From the UHGV virus genome UHGV-0155057: a DNA stretch of 10,202 nt. One strand, given 5' to 3'. A model generated the notes under the pieces. The model ran no database searches. It saw only the letters and a list, made by a program, of their open reading frames with translations, and had not been told where the DNA came from. The stretch comes from a virus. Positions 2,513 through 10,202 of the stretch are shown piece after piece (position 1 is the stretch's first letter; each line of letters begins with the position of its first letter). A program made the translations under genes and the position numbers.

Positions 2513-4501
2513 CAACGCATCAGACTTAGCCCCCTGCGTCAGAGCGTTAATTGCCTTTTGTGCCTGCTGCATTGCTTTCTCAAAGGCTGTTGATCCGCGT
2601 GGGGTGTTTGCCATTCGGAGCATTGCATTTCTGAATGGTTCGCTCTCATAGGCGCGAGTAAGAAGTCCGTAGCTTACTGCTGCGCCAGTTGTCGCTGGGT
2701 TCATTGCCGTCCCATACCCAATAATGAACGGGATAGTTTGCTGCCCTGTAGGTGTTGTTACTGCCGCTTTTGCAGCCTGCTGCGTGGATTGCAGGTAGTT
2801 TTTTAATCCATTCAGATAAGCAGCGTCCTGCCCCTTAAATGTGATGCCAGTCTGGTTTTGCAGGATGTTAAGCTGCCGAAGGAACTGGTCAGGGGAACCA
2901 CCTGATTTCTCCATCGCCTTTCCAATGATGCCATTGCGCATTTGCGCCCTGCCAACACGACCAACTGAGTTATACAGAGTCTTAATTTCCGATTTGTTCT
3001 TGCTGAATAGCATGTTGTTGACAACTTCTGGCGTCAGATCGCCTTTCATGAGAACATTCTTCAGCCTGGTATTCTTGAGTTTCGCTGCTTCGTCAGCATA
3101 GACGGCATTGGCCTGCTGATATTTACGGAGAGTATCGTTGCCAAGATTCTGACCAATGGCACCATTGATATCGTCGGTCATTGCCTTGTAAACGCGCTGA
3201 ATGGCAGCATCGGAACGGTTTGGTAACACTGGTCGCTCACCCTTCACGTCCATTCTGAACTGGCTGCGCAGATCGCTTAATTGCTTCAAATCCAGATTTA
3301 CCGGACCATCAGGACCAGCATTGCGAACAAGCTCATCACGATAGGACTGAAGTTTTGAAATAGTCTCGTTATCAGCAACCTTACCAAGCTTCTGCAGGTT
3401 AGATATTTCTGTATCAATCTGCTGAATTGCTCTTGCAGGCTGAATGTTTATTCCCGCCATAGCATTCTGAACCTGCTCCAGTCGATTTCCTGCAGCGCGA
3501 CGAATTCCTGATGTTTTCGCTTTAAGGCTGTCAATAACAACCGCTGGATCATACTCACCGAATTTATCAGCAAATCTCTGAACCAACTGGCTTCTCGCTT
3601 CCTGTTGCGTTGCTCTCATTCCGCTTGTGCCAGCCAGGGGGATATTTTCTGCTGTCGTTTGCGCCATTTTTCCGACGCGGGAAGTAGGCTGTAACAGGTC
3701 GGTGGTGTGCAGAGGCACTCCTTCACGCTCTGCAAATCTGATAGCTTGCTGCGCTTCTGGTGCAATAGCACCACGAACGCCACGATAAGCAGCGCCTAAT
3801 CCACGTCCGGCAGCGTTAATAGCGCCGCCAGCCAGAACGCCAACGCCTAAATCGGTAGCGAGTGCTTCCGCATCATCTTTCGCACTATTTGCAGCAAGTG
3901 ACCCGACTGCGTTTTCAGCGAGAAGGCGAGTTGCACCCTGAGCGATTCTACCAGCGAGTGTTGGTGCCTGTGTTGCCGCTCTCTCAATGCCAGCAGGAGT
4001 GAGGTAAGGCAATGCCTCAGAAAATACCCTGCCCTCTGTAGTTTGTGGAGTCAGCGCGCCTTGCTGAAGGCCAAAGTCCTGCTCTAATCCCTGCGTTGTT
4101 ACTCGTGGCGCTGGGTGATATGTCCCATCGCCAATTCCGAGTTTACCGCCAGCCCAAGCCGCCGCGCTTGTTACAGCATCGGCAACTGATGCAGGTATGT
4201 TTGCCACGTTCACGCCAGCCTGCACCAGTCCGCGACCAGTCTCTTTTACTGCTTCACCAAGATCAGACATAAATCCACTTTGCTGTGGTTGTTGCTGTGC
4301 TACTGGTTGTTGTGTCTCCACTGGCTGCACAGATGGCAATGGATAGGCAGCATAGAAAGCTTGCTTAGCCTGCTCTGCATTTTCTCCGGCTTGCGGGGCA
4401 ACGACTTCATTGAAGTATTGCTCCTGAGCCTGCGCTTTTTGTTCTGGTGCTAACGCCTGATACTGTGGAGAGGCGATAACATCTTTCCATGCTTTAGCCA
4501 T
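2504..4501 (-). CDS. Phage ejection (DNA-transfer/injection) protein, P22 gp16-like by synteny (665 aa)
   Basis: Long minus-strand ORF with an Ala/Gly/Gln-rich composition typical of podovirus ejection proteins. It is the last late gene before the mnt/tailspike region, the position of gene 16 in P22. Its start overlaps the upstream stop as TAATG (complement of 4499-4503), indicating translational coupling. Confidence 0.65.
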   Translation of the reverse strand: MAKAWKDVIASPQYQALAPEQKAQAQEQYFNEVVAPQAGENAEQAKQAFYAAYPLPSVQPVETQQPVAQQQPQQSGFMSDLGEAVKETGRGLVQAGVNVANIPASVADAVTSAAAWAGGKLGIGDGTYHPAPRVTTQGLEQDFGLQQGALTPQTTEGRVFSEALPYLTPAGIERAATQAPTLAGRIAQGATRLLAENAVGSLAANSAKDDAEALATDLGVGVLAGGAINAAGRGLGAAYRGVRGAIAPEAQQAIRFAEREGVPLHTTDLLQPTSRVGKMAQTTAENIPLAGTSGMRATQQEARSQLVQRFADKFGEYDPAVVIDSLKAKTSGIRRAAGNRLEQVQNAMAGINIQPARAIQQIDTEISNLQKLGKVADNETISKLQSYRDELVRNAGPDGPVNLDLKQLSDLRSQFRMDVKGERPVLPNRSDAAIQRVYKAMTDDINGAIGQNLGNDTLRKYQQANAVYADEAAKLKNTRLKNVLMKGDLTPEVVNNMLFSKNKSEIKTLYNSVGRVGRAQMRNGIIGKAMEKSGGSPDQFLRQLNILQNQTGITFKGQDAAYLNGLKNYLQSTQQAAKAAVTTPTGQQTIPFIIGYGTAMNPATTGAAVSYGLLTRAYESEPFRNAMLRMANTPRGSTAFEKAMQQAQKAINALTQGAKSDALSE

Positions 4502-5616
4502 TAATCACCCCATAGTGAAGAAAAGTTACTGCTGGCTGCTGGCTGTGATACCTGTGCAGGTTGAGATTGCTGCCGCTGAGATTTACCAACATTAACGTTA
4601 TATTGTTGGTTGTAATTGTTGGTGTATTCCTGAATCTCACGAATCGACTGCTGCATAGCCTCCGGGCTTGAATAGTCAACCTGCGGCATCCCCTGAAAAT
4701 ACATCTTCGCTTCTGCAACGGTGTTAATACCACTGGCACCCATGTCCCTTGCTGCTGCCACCCCCTGATTCTGCATTCTTCCCTGAATACGTTGTGCTGA
4801 GTTATATAACTGGCGCTGCTCTTTTCCTGTTAATCGGCTGCGAACATCAGCACCAATTGCCGGGTTACCTGCACCGCCTGTCATTCCTGTCATGAAATCG
4901 AGAGCAGAAGCGTCTGCATTTGCGATCGCGTCGATATCCTTCTTCATGGCATAGTTTTGTGCTGATGCAGACGATGTTGCAGGCGCTGCGATTGAACTGG
5001 CAGGAACGCGAACCATATTCCCCTCGTTGTCGATGCCTTCGTAGAACGCATTAGCCCCAGCGCCGTGAAGTTTCCCGCCTACCGTTACAGTTCTGCCATC
5101 TGATAACTGAACTGTACGCTCATCATTACCAGCGGTTCCTCTTGTTGACGCTCTCTGCATTGCCAAATCCTGCCCGCGTCGCGCAGTAGAAGCAGATAAA
5201 TCCTGACCGCGCATCGTGATGTTCTGACCTCGTGCTGTTAGCGCCTCGCCAGCCTGATTGCTGCGGATTGTCTCTGCAAGTTTTCCGCGATCAATCTCAC
5301 GCCCAACGATTCTGTCTTGCGCCTGAAAATATTGTTCTGGACCAAGAGCAGCCATTCCAAGGTGATCAACAAACTCACCAAATCCTGAAGGATTCTGCTG
5401 ATACATCTGAGCAACGTTATTAGGGTCAACACCGACGCGAGTCAGTTCCTTGGCGTTGTTTTGCAGCCATGATTGCATTGCTTCTGGAGACGATGACGCA
5501 AGGCGTGCGCCAGCCGCTAAGGTGCCGATAGAATTACGCTGGTCTTCATCAATGAATCCCATGCCTTTACGAACGGATTCAATCTGGTCTGGATATTGAG
5601 TAGCCAACTGACGCAA
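4501..5616 (-). CDS. Phage ejection protein, P22 gp20-like, apparently 5'-truncated (likely gene remnant)
   Basis: The minus-strand frame is open only up to 5640 (in-frame stop at complement 5641-5643). The track start at 5616 is TTG and no ATG follows until codon 19. The longest possible product is about 379 aa against roughly 430-470 aa remembered for gp20 homologues. Its 3' end is coupled to the gp16-like start. Assignment is by synteny and composition only. Confidence 0.5.
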
Positions 5617-5640
5617 AGCACCGCGATGGCAAGGTGTGGG
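5604..5640. other. Putative deletion/recombination junction where a 5'-truncated late gene meets a 5'-truncated early-left gene head-to-head
   Basis: The plus-strand recombinase frame opens only at 5604 (in-frame TAG at 5601-5603) and the minus-strand gp20-like frame closes at 5640. Both genes lack their expected N-termini and the two open frames overlap within this 37 bp. Confidence 0.5.
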
Positions 5641-6254
5641 CTATGGTGCTGGCTTATGTCACGAACCGGGCAATCATGAAACGCCTGGACGATGTTTGTG
5701 GCAAAGCAGGATGGCGCAATGAATACCGCGACATTCCCAACAACGGCGGCGTTGAATGCGGCATATCAATAAAGATTGATTCCGAATGGGTAACCAAATG
5801 GGATGCTGCTGAAAACACGCAGGTAGAAGCCGTCAAAGGTGGTCGTTCAGGTGCAATGAAGCGCGCTGCCGTTCAGTGGGGAATCGGTCGGTATCTGTAT
5901 AACCTTGAGGAAGGTTTCGCACAAACATCTCTCGACAAAAAGCAGGGATGGCACAGGGCAAAACTCAAGGATGGAACAGGATTTTACTGGCTCCCTCCAT
6001 CGCTGCCAGGCTGGGCAATCCCAGCATCAGATAACAAACCATCACCAGAAAATACCAACCAGAAATCTCCATCGGTTGACTGCGAGCAAATCCTGAAAGA
6101 CTTCAGCGATTATGCGTCAACAGAAACTGACAAGAAAAAACTCATCGAGCGTTATCAGCGTGACTGGCAATTAATGGCTGGCAACGAGGAGGCGCAGGCT
6201 AAATGCGTTCAGGTAATGAACATCAGAGTTAACGAACTAAAACAGGCGGCATAG
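5634..6254 (+). CDS. Rad52/Sak-family single-strand annealing protein (phage recombinase), apparently N-terminally truncated
   Basis: Contains [21 protein letters not shown] and [23 protein letters not shown], which I recognise as the conserved core of Rad52-like phage annealing proteins. The frame opens only at 5604 and roughly 25-35 N-terminal residues appear missing. Possible starts are GTG 5634 (track) or ATG 5643, which has AAGG 8 nt upstream. Confidence 0.6.
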
Positions 6255-6770
6255 ATGGCAAGCAGAGGCGTAAATAAGGTGATCATTATTGGTCGCCTTG
6301 GGCATGATCCAGAAATCAGATATTCACCATCAGGAACGGCATTTGCAAACCTTACAGTTGCTACGTCAGAACAATGGCGTGATAAGCAAACTGGAGAGCA
6401 AAAGGAGCAGACGGAGTGGCACCGTGTGGTAATGAGCGGGAAACTGGCAGAAATTGCCAGCGAATATCTGCGAAAAGGCTCTGAGGTTTATCTTGAAGGA
6501 AAATTGCGGACAAGAAAATGGCAGGATCAAAGCGGACAGGATCGGTTCACTACCGAAGTTATCGTGGGCGTTGGTGGAACCATGCAAATGCTTGGTGGCA
6601 AGCAAGGAAGCAATGAACAGTCTTCACCTCAGCGAAATAACGGCCAGCAACAAAGACAGCAATCTCAGCAGCATGGGAATCACAGCGAACCACCTGTGGA
6701 TTTTGACGACGATATACCCTTTGCGCCAGTAACTCTCCCCTTCCCTCGTCACGCTATTCACGCAATTTAA
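6255..6770 (+). CDS. ssb: Single-stranded DNA-binding protein (SSB) with a 15-residue extension beyond the canonical C-terminal DDDIPF
   Basis: [98 protein letters not shown]...DFDDDIPF closely matches E. coli SSB across the OB fold and acidic tip. The ATG at 6255 directly follows the upstream stop. The ORF continues as [15 protein letters not shown] (6723-6767) before TAA at 6768-6770. Confidence 0.9.
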
Positions 6771-6778
6771 GGACTTAC

Positions 6779-7327
6779 ATGAATCACTTGATGGTTGACC
6801 TTGAAACAATGGGCAACGGGCCATACGCGCCTGTTATTTCTATTGGGGCGGTATTCTTTGACCCGAATACCGGAGAAACAGGAGAAGAGTTCTCGGTAAA
6901 TATCTCGCTTGAGTCATCAATGCGATATCGGGCGCGTCCTGACGCTTCAACGATTTTATGGTGGATGGAACAGAGTGAAGAAGCCAGAAAATCGCTAACC
7001 AGCAACACTCAAGAGCTTTCAACGGCTCTTTCATGGTTATCTGAATTCATCATAAAGAACGCTAACCACAAATTCGTTCAGGTTTGGGGGAATGGAGCAT
7101 CATTTGACTGCGTTATTCTCCGAAACAGTTATTCGCTGACAGGGCAGCCAGTTCCGTGGCAGTGGTGGAATGACCGCGACGTAAGAACAATCGTCGAACT
7201 TGGGAAGGTAATAGGATTCGACCCTAAGCGAGATATGCCATTCAAAGGAACTCGCCACAACGCGCTTGATGATGCCATTCACCAAGCCAAATACGTTTCA
7301 GCGATCTGGAAAAAGTTAGCTAAATAA
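6779..7327 (+). CDS. DEDDh-type 3'-5' exonuclease (DnaQ-like fold), 182 aa
   Basis: Exo motifs are readable: MVDLETMG (Exo I, D-x-E), VWGNGASFDCVIL (Exo II) and TRHNALDDAIHQAKY (Exo III, H-x3-D). AAGGA RBS sits 6-7 nt upstream of the ATG at 6779. Confidence 0.8.
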   Translation: MNHLMVDLETMGNGPYAPVISIGAVFFDPNTGETGEEFSVNISLESSMRYRARPDASTILWWMEQSEEARKSLTSNTQELSTALSWLSEFIIKNANHKFVQVWGNGASFDCVILRNSYSLTGQPVPWQWWNDRDVRTIVELGKVIGFDPKRDMPFKGTRHNALDDAIHQAKYVSAIWKKLAK

Positions 7328-7343
7328 TCAACAGGAGAAAACC

Positions 7344-7637
7344 ATGCCAGCGCCTCTGTATGGTGCGGATGACCCGCGCCGCTGTTCCGGCAATTCCGTA
7401 TCGGAGGTGCTGGATAAATTCAGAAAAAACTACGACCTGATAATGTCGCTACCGCAGGAAACGAAAGAGGAAAAGGAATTTCGCCATTGTATATGGCTTG
7501 CAGAGAAAGAAGAACGCGAGCGAATTTACCAGACATCAATCCGACCATTCCGCAAAGCCACATATACCCACTTCCCTGAAATTGACCCGCGCCTGCGTAA
7601 TTACCGCTCACGCTATGGCGCTATCAGTAATGACTGA
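7344..7637 (+). CDS. Hypothetical early-left accessory protein (97 aa)
   Basis: ATG at 7344 with AGGAG 7 nt upstream. Charged, protein-like composition, same strand and tightly packed with its neighbours. No family recognised. Confidence 0.6.
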   Translation: MPAPLYGADDPRRCSGNSVSEVLDKFRKNYDLIMSLPQETKEEKEFRHCIWLAEKEERERIYQTSIRPFRKATYTHFPEIDPRLRNYRSRYGAISND

Positions 7638-7647
7638 GGAATTAACA

Positions 7648-7938
7648 ATGAAAACAATGAAGCTAAACATCGACCTCGGAAAATACGTTATTACCGGAAC
7701 CAAACACGATCTGATTCTTAGCGAAAGAGGAATTATCAAAGAAGGCGAGAATGCAGGGAAAGAAACACTAAGCCGTATCGGTTATTACAGCAAGTTTGAG
7801 CATCTGGTTAAAGAATTATGCAACCGTGAAATCCTGTTATCTCAGGCGCAGACGCTACAGGATATTCAGCAACATATCGAGACTTTAGGTGTGTCACTTA
7901 GCATGGCTATTGACCAGTTAGTGGAGAGTAAATCATGA
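7648..7938 (+). CDS. Hypothetical early-left accessory protein (96 aa)
   Basis: I chose ATG 7648 ([17 protein letters not shown]...), which has GAGGA 7 nt upstream and begins 11 nt after the upstream stop. The longer track ORF from 7498 would overlap the preceding gene by 140 nt in another frame. Confidence 0.6.
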
Positions 7939-8099
7939 GAGGACTTGCATACAATCCCGGCATTCTTCCGGCAGAAATGATTATTCGCCAACGCGTAAAG
8001 CCAATGCCATCGAGAGAGGAATTGCTTAAAAGAAATAGTTTCGGTTCTGTTAATGACAACAAATATCTGAATGCGATATGGCGGAGTGGGAAGAAATGA
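7935..8099 (+). CDS. Hypothetical small protein (54 aa; below the track's apparent size cutoff)
   Basis: The start ATG overlaps the upstream stop as ATGA (7935-7938) and the stop overlaps the next start as ATGA (8096-8099). Translation is [54 protein letters not shown]. Support is coupling and context only. Confidence 0.4.
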
Positions 8100-8692
8100 A
8101 ACAAATGTCACTAATTGAGATGGATGGATTTCTGAAAGGTAAATGCATCCCACGAGATTTAAAGGTTAACGAAACAAACGCTGAATATCTGGTGCGTAAA
8201 TTTGCTGAAGCGGAGGCCAAGTGCGCGGCGCTGGCAGCGGAGAATACGGGGCTGAAGTCTGGCGCTATGGACGAAATCAAGGTTATCAACCGTGGAGGGC
8301 AGGCATATTGTGTAAAAGATGGAGTGCAAGTTAATCCCATGTATGCAAGAGGGTGGAATGACTATCGCGCAAAGTCTATGCAATCATACACCCCAGCCAC
8401 CGATGCTTTCCTGGCTGGAGTGCGGGCCAGCTCCATTCCTGAAGGTTACGTGCTTGTACCTCAACAAATTTTTCTCAAACCATCCGACATTGAATCTATT
8501 TGCTCTCAATGTGGTGACGGTCATGAATCTGGGTACGGTGATTTTACTGATGGGCTGCTGTGGATTGGCAACATTCAATGTGACGACGGAAGTATTGTCC
8601 ACGGACTGCATATCTCATCAGCCGATTACTCAGAGGAAGGCGGTGTAACAGTTTGCGAGTTCGACGCAGGCATGTGCATCAAAGGAGAGTGA
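8096..8692 (+). CDS. Hypothetical phage early protein (198 aa) with a coiled-coil-like N-terminal region and a Cys-rich C-terminal region
   Basis: ATG 8096 is coupled to the upstream stop; an alternative ATG at 8078 lacks an RBS. The C-terminal region carries CSQCGDGH...QCDDGS...VCEFDAGMC, suggesting possible metal binding. No family recognised with confidence. Confidence 0.6.
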
Positions 8693-8693
8693 T

Positions 8694-9377
8694 ATGAGCA
8701 CTATCACTAAAGAACGTATCGAATTGTTCATTAAATCCCCGCTTAAAAACGGGCTTACCCGTGGCGAACAAATGGAACTGGCACGGATTGCTCTGGCATC
8801 GCTGGAAGCTGAAAAGGTAACTCTCTATCGCGAGCGAAATCCCTACAATGGCATGACGACCGGATGGCAGGAATTGACCGAGCAGGAATACGAGTTTGTC
8901 AAAGATAACGCCAGTGAAAACGCCGAATTTCGTACTGTGTACACCGCACCGCCAGCGCCGGTAGTACCTGCTGCATTACCTGAGAACGACGATGAGGACG
9001 GGCAGGACATTGATTATCTTGAGCCATCTGAAGTTTACGCGCTTGGGCGAACAGCTGGCTGGAACGCCTGCCGTGCTGCCATGCTTCAGGGTAAATCCGA
9101 ACAACCACAAAACGCACAACAAAATATTCCGGAAAATATTCCCGGTGGCAACTCTCCGGTAACTCCGGATGGTTGGATAAGCTGTAGTGAGCGAATGCCG
9201 GAAGAAACGGGTGACATTATTGTTGTTTCGGATGGCATTGTAATGTCAGGGATTTCTTATTCTCGTCGTGACGGGTTCTATATGGCCGCATTGGAGTACG
9301 ACGACGACGAACCAATTGACGGTGTAACCCACTGGATGCCTCTACCAGAACCGCCGCAGGAGGTTAACGGTGGCTAA
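8694..9377 (+). CDS. Eaa-like early protein with a C-terminal DUF551-type domain (227 aa)
   Basis: AGGAG 6 nt upstream of ATG 8694. The C-terminal segment PDGWISCSERMPEE...DGVTHWMPLPEPP resembles the DUF551 signature seen in prophage Eaa proteins, recalled from memory. An acidic linker precedes it. Confidence 0.65.
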   Translation: MSTITKERIELFIKSPLKNGLTRGEQMELARIALASLEAEKVTLYRERNPYNGMTTGWQELTEQEYEFVKDNASENAEFRTVYTAPPAPVVPAALPENDDEDGQDIDYLEPSEVYALGRTAGWNACRAAMLQGKSEQPQNAQQNIPENIPGGNSPVTPDGWISCSERMPEETGDIIVVSDGIVMSGISYSRRDGFYMAALEYDDDEPIDGVTHWMPLPEPPQEVNGG

Positions 9378-9654
9378 CCTGCAACTTGCCGTTAAAGGTG
9401 AATACTTCGATGCCATGATTCGCAGAGAGAAAACAGAAGAGTATCGCCTGTGTAATGACTATTGGAATAAGCGAATTATGTTCCGGGAGTATGACCGCCT
9501 GATTATCACAAAGGGATATCCGAAGCGCGACGACTACAGCCGTAGAATTGACGTCCCGTATGACGGATATGAAATAAAGACAATCACACATCCACACTTC
9601 GGCGATAAACCGGTAAAGGTATTCGCGATAAAGGTGAATATCGGCAATGAATAA
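9370..9654 (+). CDS. ASCH / PUA-like (DUF3850-type) domain protein (94 aa)
   Basis: GTG start at 9370 with GGAGG 7 nt upstream, overlapping the upstream gene by 8 nt. The N-terminus (L.VKGEYFDAMIRREKTEEYRLCND) fits the ASCH-type K-x-x-E-x-R pattern and the small beta-barrel length. Confidence 0.65.
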   Translation: MANLQLAVKGEYFDAMIRREKTEEYRLCNDYWNKRIMFREYDRLIITKGYPKRDDYSRRIDVPYDGYEIKTITHPHFGDKPVKVFAIKVNIGNE

Positions 9655-9688
9655 CAATCCTCGCACTCGCGGGGATTTCTTTTATCTG

Positions 9689-9714
9689 AACTCGCTACGG
9701 CGAGTTTTGTTTTA
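9689..9714 (+). terminator. Putative weak intrinsic terminator or attenuator
   Basis: Hairpin aaCTCGC-tacg-GCGAGtt followed by the T-rich tract TTTTGTTTT. The GC stem is only 5 bp, so this is weak. Confidence 0.3.
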
Positions 9715-9726
9715 TGGAGATGATAA

Positions 9727-9894
9727 ATGCACTTCCGAGTCACAGGAGAATGGAATGGAGAGCCATTCAACAGAGTTATCGAAGCAGAGAACATCAACGA
9801 CTGCTATGACCACTGGATGCTATGGGCGCAGATAGCACATGCAGACATAACCAATATTCGAATTGAAGAACTGAAAGAACACCAAGCCGCCTGA
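9727..9894 (+). CDS. Hypothetical small protein (55 aa) between two terminator-like hairpins
   Basis: ATG 9727 with GGAG 7 nt upstream. Translation is MHFRVTGEWNGEPFNRVIEAENINDCYDHWMLWAQIAHADITNIRIEELKEHQAA. The TGA stop (9892-9894) lies in the loop of the downstream terminator. Preferred over the overlapping track ORF 9647-9835. Confidence 0.4.
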   Translation: MHFRVTGEWNGEPFNRVIEAENINDCYDHWMLWAQIAHADITNIRIEELKEHQAA

Positions 9895-9909
9895 TGGCGG
9901 TTTATTTTT
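9884..9909 (+). terminator. Rho-independent terminator at the end of the early-left gene block
   Basis: Stem GCCGCC (9886-9891), loop TGAT, GGCGG(T) (9896-9901) with flanking A:T pairs, followed by TTTATTTTT. Confidence 0.55.
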
Positions 9910-9916
9910 GCCTGAT

Positions 9917-9932
9917 TTGCAGGTTCGATTCC
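9917..9932. other. tRNA T-arm-like 16-mer (TTGCAGGTTCGATTCC); possible attachment-site core remnant, not a tRNA gene
   Basis: Contains the GGTTCGATTCC T-loop consensus with a 5' stem half, but no matching 3' T-stem, acceptor stem or upstream tRNA body. From memory it resembles the T-arm of an arginine tRNA (argW-type) used as an integration site by P22-like/KplE1-type elements. Confidence 0.3.
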
Positions 9933-9951
9933 CTATTCGGAGATAGCACTC

Positions 9952-10152
9952 ATGCAACACGAACTACAACCTGATTCACTGGTTGATTTGAAATTCATCA
10001 TGGCTGATACTGGCTTTGGTAAAACCTTCATCTATGACCGGATTAAGTCCGGCGACCTGCCTAAAGCCAAAGTTATCCACGGGCGAGCAAGATGGTTATA
10101 TCGTGACCATTGTGAATTCAAAAATAAGCTCTTAAGCCGCGCCAATGGGTAA
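9952..10152 (+). CDS. xis: Excisionase / recombination directionality factor, AlpA-family winged helix, TorI-like (66 aa)
   Basis: GGAG 9 nt upstream of ATG 9952. The translation (..LVDLKFIMADTGFGKTFIYDRIKSGDLPKAKVIHGRARWLYRDHCEFKNKLL..) matches the excisionase pattern of a helix, I/FYxxI/LKxGxxPK, then a G-R-x-x-RW wing. Its size and position at the prophage end are as for TorI of KplE1 and the Sf6/HK620 excisionases. Confidence 0.8.
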   Translation: MQHELQPDSLVDLKFIMADTGFGKTFIYDRIKSGDLPKAKVIHGRARWLYRDHCEFKNKLLSRANG

Positions 10153-10202
10153 AATAGCGGGTAAAATATTTCTCACATCTCAAAAACACCATTCCAATCA
10201 AT

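Follow-up and report, generated by a model that had tools for sequence, protein, structure and literature searches.

Four small genes of a likely anti-RecBCD module, including a mosaic EaE/YfdS/Oad2-family gene, in a decayed allele of the cryptic prophage CPS-53/KplE1

We analysed the UHGV virus genome UHGV-0155057, a 10,202-nucleotide (nt) stretch of DNA referred to here as the window, with a focus on four small open reading frames (ORFs) located at 7344–8692 on the + strand. ORF1 (7344–7637, 97 amino acids (aa)) is assigned below to abc2, the gene for anti-RecBCD protein 2. ORF2 (7648–7938, 96 aa) encodes a DUF5405 protein with homologues in Sf6 (gp24), ES18 (gp45), HK446 (gp29) and P2-like phages, and ORF3 (7935–8099, 54 aa) encodes a DUF2737 protein homologous to P22 Orf56, HK97 gp38 and HK446 gp28. 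ORF4 (8096–8692, 198 aa) is predicted to encode a mosaic protein of the EaE/YfdS/Oad2 family. A first-pass annotation had described four co-directional ORFs of these sizes with ATGA stop/start overlaps and a ribosome-binding site each, and direct reading bore this out. The overlaps lie at 7935–7938 (ORF2/ORF3) and 8096–8099 (ORF3/ORF4), the ORF1–ORF2 gap is 10 nt, and Shine-Dalgarno-like motifs were found 6–9 nt 5' of every ATG (AGGAG at 7333–7337, GAGG at 7636–7639, GGAG at 7923–7926 and GGAG at 8083–8086 for ORF1 to ORF4, respectively). The ORF4 start at 8096 is also backed by homologues that start with MKQM.

The outline of a self-contained four-gene cassette, on the other hand, did not survive inspection of the flanks. 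Upstream, the stop of a Rad52-like gene is followed directly by the start of a gene for the single-stranded DNA-binding protein (SSB), SSB is separated from an exonuclease gene by 8 nt, and the exonuclease gene from ORF1 by 16 nt. Downstream, the next gene begins 1 nt after ORF4 and is overlapped by 8 nt by the gene that follows. Successive gaps across 6255–9654 are therefore equally tight (0, 8, 16, 10, −4, −4, 1 and −8 nt), and because this packing continues on both sides, the four-gene boundary is arbitrary.

The coding signal was evaluated by pairwise nonsynonymous-to-synonymous rate ratios (dN/dS; Nei–Gojobori method, NG86) against diverged homologues. The ratios were 0.10–0.35 for ORF1, 0.12 for ORF2 and 0.13–0.21 for ORF3; in ORF4 the C-terminal domain gave 0.07 and the N-terminal and middle part, compared with Oad2, gave 0.43, indicating faster evolution of the latter. 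These values support all four ORFs being real coding genes under purifying selection. No Rfam family and no meaningful repeats or inverted repeats embedded in the region were detected on either strand by Rfam, repeat and inverted-repeat scans, and no terminator-like hairpin was found on the + strand between 6835 and 9262, an interval that spans all four ORFs.

ORF1 matched the Pfam family PF11043 (Bacteriophage P22, anti-RecBCD protein 2) over positions 1–97 of 97 (E 6.2e-65; 215.9 bits against a cut-off of 25) and phrog_656 ('abc2 anti-RecBCD', E 4e-55). It also aligned over residues 1–97 with PDB chain 8b1t_A, solved in 8B1T/8B1U (E 2.8e-59), where residues 1–64 are identical, A65S is the sole change before residue 67 and Pro68 is kept. 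Both the RecC-binding helices (residues 3–66 in 8B1T) and the PpiB-substrate proline, Pro68, are thus conserved. Amino acid identity was 95% to P22 abc2 in the NG86 codon alignment and 99% to HK446 gp30. On these alignments we identify ORF1 as Abc2, the P22 anti-RecBCD protein. Abc2 binds RecC and PpiB, with Pro68 occupying the active site of the host PpiB, and leaves the helicase and nuclease activity of RecBCD largely intact; RecBCD is redirected towards phage recombination and not simply blocked (eLife 2022, PMC9836394). The same study describes Abc2 as unstable by itself and in need of partners.

ORF2 is a member of the DUF5405 family. It scored 25.8 bits against PF17399 (gathering cut-off 21.6), also matched phrog_154, and is 99% identical to HK446 gp29. 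Its AlphaFold2 model had a mean predicted local distance difference test (pLDDT) of 88.6, and Foldseek matched this model to DUF5405 proteins with template modelling scores of 0.74–0.82 and an E-value of 5e-8. Fold matches to the family also occur in Bacillus, Cellulophaga and Lactobacillus phages, and distant homologues (∼35% identity) are found in P2-like phages beside a TraR/DksA-like gene and replication gene A. The label 'replication initiation protein' that phrog_154 and RefSeq attach to the family found no support in PDB sequence search, fold matches or literature, and an identification of ORF2 as P22 Abc1 was rejected as the two show no similarity.

ORF3 is a member of the DUF2737 family, matching PF10930 over positions 1–53 of 53 (E 8.6e-31; 106 bits, cut-off 25). 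Its identity is 75% to P22 Orf56 and 98% to HK446 gp28. Searches for function were less informative: the literature gave nothing functional on DUF5405 or P2 orf83 and one incidental mention of DUF2737, PDB sequence searches were empty for ORF2, ORF3 and ORF4, and NCBIfam and PADLOC gave no match for any of the four ORFs. The accessory-gene libraries of Silas et al. contain Abc2 but no ORF2-, ORF3- or ORF4-like sequences.

ORF4 matched no Pfam or NCBIfam family but eight PHROG families, and its modular structure was read from an alignment of homologues (A1). An N-module at aa 1–46 is YfdS-like (77% identical to K-12 YfdS over aa 3–46) and is followed by a coiled coil of variable length and a variable middle (aa 47–98), a near-invariant TPATDAFLA hinge (aa 99–111) in which T102, D103, F105 and L106 are invariant among the aligned homologues, an uncharacterised C-terminal domain of ∼80 aa (aa 112–189) and a 9-aa Ea22-like tail (aa 190–198; 8666–8692, + strand). 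HK446 gp27, which is Oad2, is 44% identical over aa 1–111, with the first 38 aa and the hinge near-identical. There is no similarity past aa 111, where the last 87 aa of ORF4 are unrelated to the last 43 aa of Oad2. P22 EaE is 33% identical in the middle region (coiled coil and hinge), and the C-terminus of BTP1 EaE is 87.5% identical to the ORF4 C-terminal domain. The AlphaFold2 model of ORF4, built from a 37-sequence alignment, was poor (pLDDT 52) except for a helix at residues 28–58. From the shared N-module, coiled coil and hinge, and from its position directly 3' of DUF2737, we assign ORF4 to the EaE/YfdS/Oad2 family as a modular, shuffled relative of Oad2. Without the C-terminal region of HK446 gp27, it is probably not Oad2 in the functional sense.

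ORF4 ends in the nine residues DAGMCIKGE, which are similar to the C-terminal DAGIRIKGE of lambda Ea22; in most other proteins related to the domain, ...AAQLRKGG... is found at the end instead. The tail probably marks a recombination (mosaic) joint within the last codons of the gene.

To define the spread of the C-terminal domain, a mobile one, 1.84 billion representative proteins were scanned in full by HMMER (E<=1e-3) with the segment that includes the tail (aa 112–198; 8429–8689, + strand) as query. The domain was found in 335 representative clusters comprising proteins of 75–476 aa, C-terminal in most proteins and N-terminal or in the middle in others. The partner Pfam domains were DUF551 (2), Lar (1) and DnaJ_CXXCXGXG (1). 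Close relatives (at least 76% identity), all annotated as hypothetical, occur in Salmonella, Escherichia, Citrobacter and Hafnia, and the domain is present in many 136-aa Salmonella prophage proteins. The conserved signature is rich in glycine and acidic residues (P122, CGDG at 139–142, DG at 152–153, G158, DG at 164–165, GLH at 170–172, EEG at 180–182 and EF at 188–189).

The first-pass annotation had also pointed to a Cys-rich C-terminus of this protein. Five cysteines are indeed located in the last 63 aa, but across 148 sequences of the domain family only C139 is conserved (95%), with C136 at 54%, C187 at 25%, and C162 and C195 not conserved. Histidine conservation in the same set was 78% for H172, 59% for H169 and 16% for H143. 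A zinc finger or other Cys-rich metal site was rejected, as these sequences share no conserved four-ligand Cys/His set.

We then examined which of these genes travel together, using 77 viral contigs with Abc2 and at least 1.5 kb downstream and 80 DUF2737-centred viral contigs; a scan of genome contigs with Abc2 gave 6 loci, too few for statistics. Downstream of Abc2, DUF2737 was found in 75 of the 77 loci, an ORF4-type N-module in 50, DUF5405 in 16, the Oad2 C-terminus in 1 and the ORF4 C-terminal domain in none. In the DUF2737-centred set, Abc2 was located just upstream in 70 of the 80 loci, and in 76 of 79 viral contigs (loci L098-L177) the DUF2737 stop coincides with the start of a gene that has the YfdS/Oad2-type N-module of ORF4 and Oad2. 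In this set the Oad2 C-terminus was present in 1 locus and the ORF4 C-terminal domain again in none; the ORF4 middle segment was present in 5 of 80 loci. The abc2–DUF2737–Oad2-family pattern persists where Abc2 has diverged to 74–76% identity (L094, L005). The four-gene order is also found in HK446 (gp30-gp27) and ES18 (g46-g43), the first three genes in Sf6 (25-24-23), and the same order without DUF5405 in P22, BTP1 and HK97. At least 80% of the 1349 nt was covered in no phage record and, among 5426 complete E. coli genomes, in only 5.

What stays together is therefore abc2, an optional DUF5405 gene, DUF2737, and an Oad2-family gene with shuffled middle and C-terminal modules. Since DUF5405 is optional and the ORF4 C-terminal domain is absent from the sampled loci, the four genes are not a co-inherited unit, and the co-occurrence across prophages that the first-pass annotation had put forward as a check was not borne out. 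The linkage of DUF2737 to the Oad2-family gene (76/79) is tighter than that to abc2 (70/80), and the two may form a functional pair; DUF2737 may cooperate either with the Oad2-family protein or with Abc2.

The genes upstream of ORF1 encode a 5'-truncated Rad52/Erf-like annealing protein (5634–6254, +; PF04098), in which phrog_1097 was matched only from profile position 31, SSB (6255–6770, +; PF00436) and an Rv2179c-like 3'-5' exonuclease (6779–7327, +; PF16473). Downstream of ORF4 are genes for a 227-aa DUF551 protein (8694–9377, +), itself a mosaic to which 13 PHROG families matched piecewise, a 94-aa phrog_625 protein (9370–9654, +), a 55-aa phrog_676 protein (9727–9894, +) and the 66-aa excisionase TorI (9952–10152, +), which is 100% identical to K-12 b4501 and matched PDB 1z4h (E 6.6e-43). 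The DUF551 and 94-aa phrog_625 genes belong to the same shuffled accessory pool, and DUF551 is elsewhere fused to the ORF4 C-terminal domain. Three terminator-like hairpins with T-runs (+ strand; 9656–9677, 9688–9707 and 9884–9903) follow the 94-aa and 55-aa genes; the early-left operon probably ends at these hairpins, before torI.

At the left end of the window, a tailspike gene (50–2080, −) combines a head-binding N-terminus of the P22 type with a beta-helix receptor domain unlike that of most database relatives; its matches in E. coli genomes start only at ∼1690. An Arc/Mnt-like ribbon-helix-helix gene (2121–2414, +) adjoins it.

An exact-sequence look-up of ORF4 in E. coli-type chromosomes gave the gene order yfdC, intS, oac, tailspike (−), mnt/arc-like, gp16 (−) and gp20' (−), and, after a junction, 'rad52, ssb, exo, abc2, DUF5405, DUF2737, ORF4, DUF551, 94 aa, 55 aa and torI, with dsdC, dsdX, dsdA, emrYK and evgAS beyond torI. 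The K-12 prophage CPS-53/KplE1 (argW-intS ... yfdS-yfdT-torI-dsdC) shares the chromosomal locus and the end genes, with intS and torI likewise at opposite ends. Because TorI is identical and the K-12 prophage lies at the same place, the window represents an allele (∼10 kb) of this cryptic prophage, located between argW-intS and torI-dsdC. An inversion that would account for int and torI at opposite ends was rejected, as this is the normal CPS-53/KplE1 layout. The internal genes differ: K-12 carries gtrABS, tail-fibre remnants and yfdK-yfdT, without abc2, DUF5405 or DUF2737 at the locus, whereas the window carries oac, tailspike, gp16, gp20', the recombination genes and abc2.

The junction lies at ∼5627/5628, where a 5'-truncated gp20-like ejection-protein gene (4501–5616, −) is joined to the 5'-truncated Rad52/Erf-like gene. 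Tail-gene matches end at 5627 in all genomes, and relative to an intact copy of 235 aa (L094, 2317–3024) the Rad52-like gene is missing ∼29 codons at its N-terminal end. In the same L094 locus, a related prophage, a 159-aa ORF (3508–3987) is inserted at the 3' end of ssb and separates the conserved C-terminal tail of SSB from the rest of the protein; by reading of its sequence alone it carries Cys/His motifs typical of HNH endonucleases, and it looks like a homing-endonuclease insertion. The junction in the window is the mark of a central deletion in which PL, N and the genes for immunity, replication, lysis and the head were lost. From the gene content and this setting, we consider it likely that the four ORFs, carried in a decayed CPS-53/KplE1 allele, represent the promoter-distal part of an early-left recombination/anti-RecBCD module of lambdoid (P22/Sf6/HK446) type together with the first of the variable 'ea' genes.

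Decay at this locus raises the question of whether the four ORFs do anything at all in the genome of the window, or are silent relics of the prophage; we regard the two possibilities as about evenly balanced. The central deletion took the promoter PL along with N, the immunity, replication and head genes and the beginning of the first gene of the operon, which is therefore left without its native promoter, making expression of the window copy doubtful. In agreement with this, no sigma-70-like promoter was found on the + strand across 5400–10202, although by a simple consensus scan only. A sister allele, L004 (GCA_044468065.1; 9380–9553), has in addition lost rad52, ssb, exo and codons 1–73 of abc2, keeping its last 24 codons, and thus points to decay of this cryptic prophage that is independent and still in progress. 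Against silence, all four reading frames are intact in the window, ORFs 2–4 are 100% identical between the two independently deleted alleles, and genes of K-12 CPS-53 are expressed under some conditions. The presence of an identical ORF4 in the apparently complete prophage L005 shows that the gene is part of live phages.

Whether or not this copy is expressed, the assignment to an early-left anti-RecBCD module carries a suggestion about ORF4. HK446 gp27, Oad2, was reported in a July 2026 preprint (10.64898/2026.07.10.737580) to suffice for rescuing delta-recB cells from P2 OLD nuclease toxicity and to restore plating of OLD-sensitive phage; the complex between Oad2 and OLD is stable, and tRNA cleavage by OLD is blocked. 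OLD is an abortive-infection tRNase triggered by compromised RecBCD. The authors of the preprint place Oad2, as kin to P22 EaE, in a recombination-linked hotspot beside RecBCD manipulators (10.64898/2026.07.10.737580). The first-pass expectation that the early-left region would hold host-takeover or anti-defence genes was accordingly a good one, with a RecBCD hijacker in ORF1 and a relative of an OLD inhibitor in ORF4. In the mechanism that we propose, Abc2 would manipulate RecBCD, the downstream Oad2-family gene would neutralise a host 'guard' that senses this manipulation, and the swappable C-terminal domain would set which guard, or which guard allele, is targeted. By analogy, ORF4 could be an anti-guard or anti-defence protein retargeted by its swapped C-terminal domain, a proposal that we put at somewhat short of an even chance. 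As this domain differs from that of Oad2, the target is probably not P2 OLD itself. A narrower version, in which the domain would be a new anti-defence specificity module on the Oad2/EaE scaffold directed against a RecBCD-guarding or other immune system distinct from P2 OLD, with DUF2737 as a required partner or regulator, is more tentative still and seems to us rather doubtful.

Several points weigh against this interpretation. The Oad2 report is an unreviewed preprint, and according to it an HK75 homologue with 54% identity does not inhibit OLD (10.64898/2026.07.10.737580), so that specificity is narrow, family membership is no predictor of activity and ORF4 cannot be assumed to be anti-OLD. 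ORF4 is without the C-terminal 43 aa of Oad2, and its AlphaFold2 model was not good enough for comparing folds. Lambda-type Ea22 proteins, tied to lysogeny decisions and not to anti-defence (PMC10834534), belong to the family as well. Finally, near-identical modules (Abc2 at least 98% and DUF2737 at least 94% identical) make up most of the synteny samples, and the observed linkage may therefore partly reflect recent common descent.

Resemblance to Ea22 suggests a different role, in which ORF4 would be a developmental regulator that oligomerises through its coiled coil, binds a host protein through its C-terminal domain and biases the lysis–lysogeny decision. Lambda Ea22, for which a nuclear magnetic resonance structure of the C-terminal domain is available and a pro-lysogenic role has been reported (Goddard et al. 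2024, PMC10834534), has the same layout of short N-domain, coiled coil and C-terminal domain, and a helix is predicted at aa 28–58 of ORF4. ORF4 is also located in the equivalent region (exo-xis in one case, abc2-xis in the other), its last 9 aa resemble the Ea22 tail, and some of its relatives are named 'ead/Ea22-like' by the annotation pipeline PGAP. However, BLASTP of ORF4 against lambda Ea22 aligned the 9-aa tail only (E 0.089), ORF4 has no PDB match by sequence, and its closest characterised relative is Oad2 with demonstrated anti-OLD activity; we thus consider an Ea22-like role unlikely.

We give a similarly low probability to ORF3, and perhaps ORF2, being accessory subunits of the Abc2/RecBCD or phage recombinase machinery, that is, recombination cofactors and not anti-defence proteins. 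The near-constant position of DUF2737 3' of abc2, kept even at diverged Abc2 loci and as an abc2–DUF2737 pair in P22, BTP1, HK97 and ES18, would fit such a role, as would the need of Abc2 for partners. Nevertheless, Abc2 is absent from 10 of 80 DUF2737 loci, the linkage of DUF2737 to the Oad2-family gene 3' of it is the tighter one, ORF2 homologues occur in P2-like phages, which are without Abc2, and neither the RecBCD-Abc2-PpiB structure nor HK620 recombineering assays needed a DUF2737 or DUF5405 factor. The reading first offered, a self-contained, co-inherited cassette of four novel-family proteins acting as a new host-takeover or anti-defence unit, is very improbable, for although the four ORFs are tightly coupled in translation, two of the proteins and the ORF4 C-terminal domain are without known function and HK446 and ES18 share the gene order, ORF1 is matched to an Abc2 of solved structure, ORF2 and ORF3 fall in Pfam DUF families, DUF5405, the ORF4 C-terminal domain and its middle segment are rare or absent at the sampled loci, the 1349-nt stretch is rarely covered elsewhere, and the coupling reaches beyond the four genes.

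In sum, the likely early-left anti-RecBCD module is an ordinary and largely known one, and its novelty had been misjudged. None of the four proteins had been thought to match a nameable family, yet ORF1–3 match Pfam families and ORF4 matches PHROG families as kin of P22 EaE and HK446 Oad2. The four had also been singled out as the best candidates in the window for undescribed functions, but ORF1–3 are 98–99% identical to annotated HK446 proteins, and ORF1 is clearly homologous to a characterised phage protein whose structure is solved. Already known are one characterised protein with a solved structure and two catalogued DUFs; new is the domain combination of ORF4 within its family. In P22-like and lambdoid phages, abc2, DUF2737 and an Oad2-family gene form a conserved triplet that places a manipulator of an immune hub beside a modular family. 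One member of that family, the first to be assigned a function, was recently shown to disarm the OLD guard that senses RecBCD manipulation, and ORF4 would be a natural domain-swap variant of it. Knowing what ORF4 targets and what DUF2737 does would help in charting how 'trigger' and 'anti-guard' functions are paired by phages.

Among known systems, lambda Gam and T7 gp5.9 resemble ORF1/Abc2 in having RecBCD as host target and in genes that adjoin the phage recombinase, but both are DNA mimics that block the DNA-binding site, whereas Abc2 instead binds RecC. Lambda Ea22 resembles ORF4 in its location between the recombination genes and xis, its three-part layout and its 9-aa tail, but its C-terminal domain differs and there is otherwise no significant sequence similarity. 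The P22 abc2-orf56-eaE (NC_002371) and BTP1 abc2-BTP1_026-eaE clusters are like the window in gene order, but are without DUF5405 and have Abc1 upstream, which is absent in the window. The P22 EaE differs from ORF4 in both its N-terminus and C-terminal domain, while BTP1 EaE (136 aa) has the C-terminal domain of ORF4 but not the YfdS-like N-module. In HK446, gp30-gp29-gp28-gp27 (JQ086372.1; Abc2, DUF5405, DUF2737 and Oad2) have the same order, spacing and orientation as ORF1–4. The genes 5' of abc2 are gp33, Erf and gp31 in HK446, as opposed to the Rad52-like, SSB and exonuclease genes in the window, and gp27/Oad2 has the N-module, coiled coil and TPATDAFLA hinge in common with ORF4 but differs from it in the middle segment and C-terminus.

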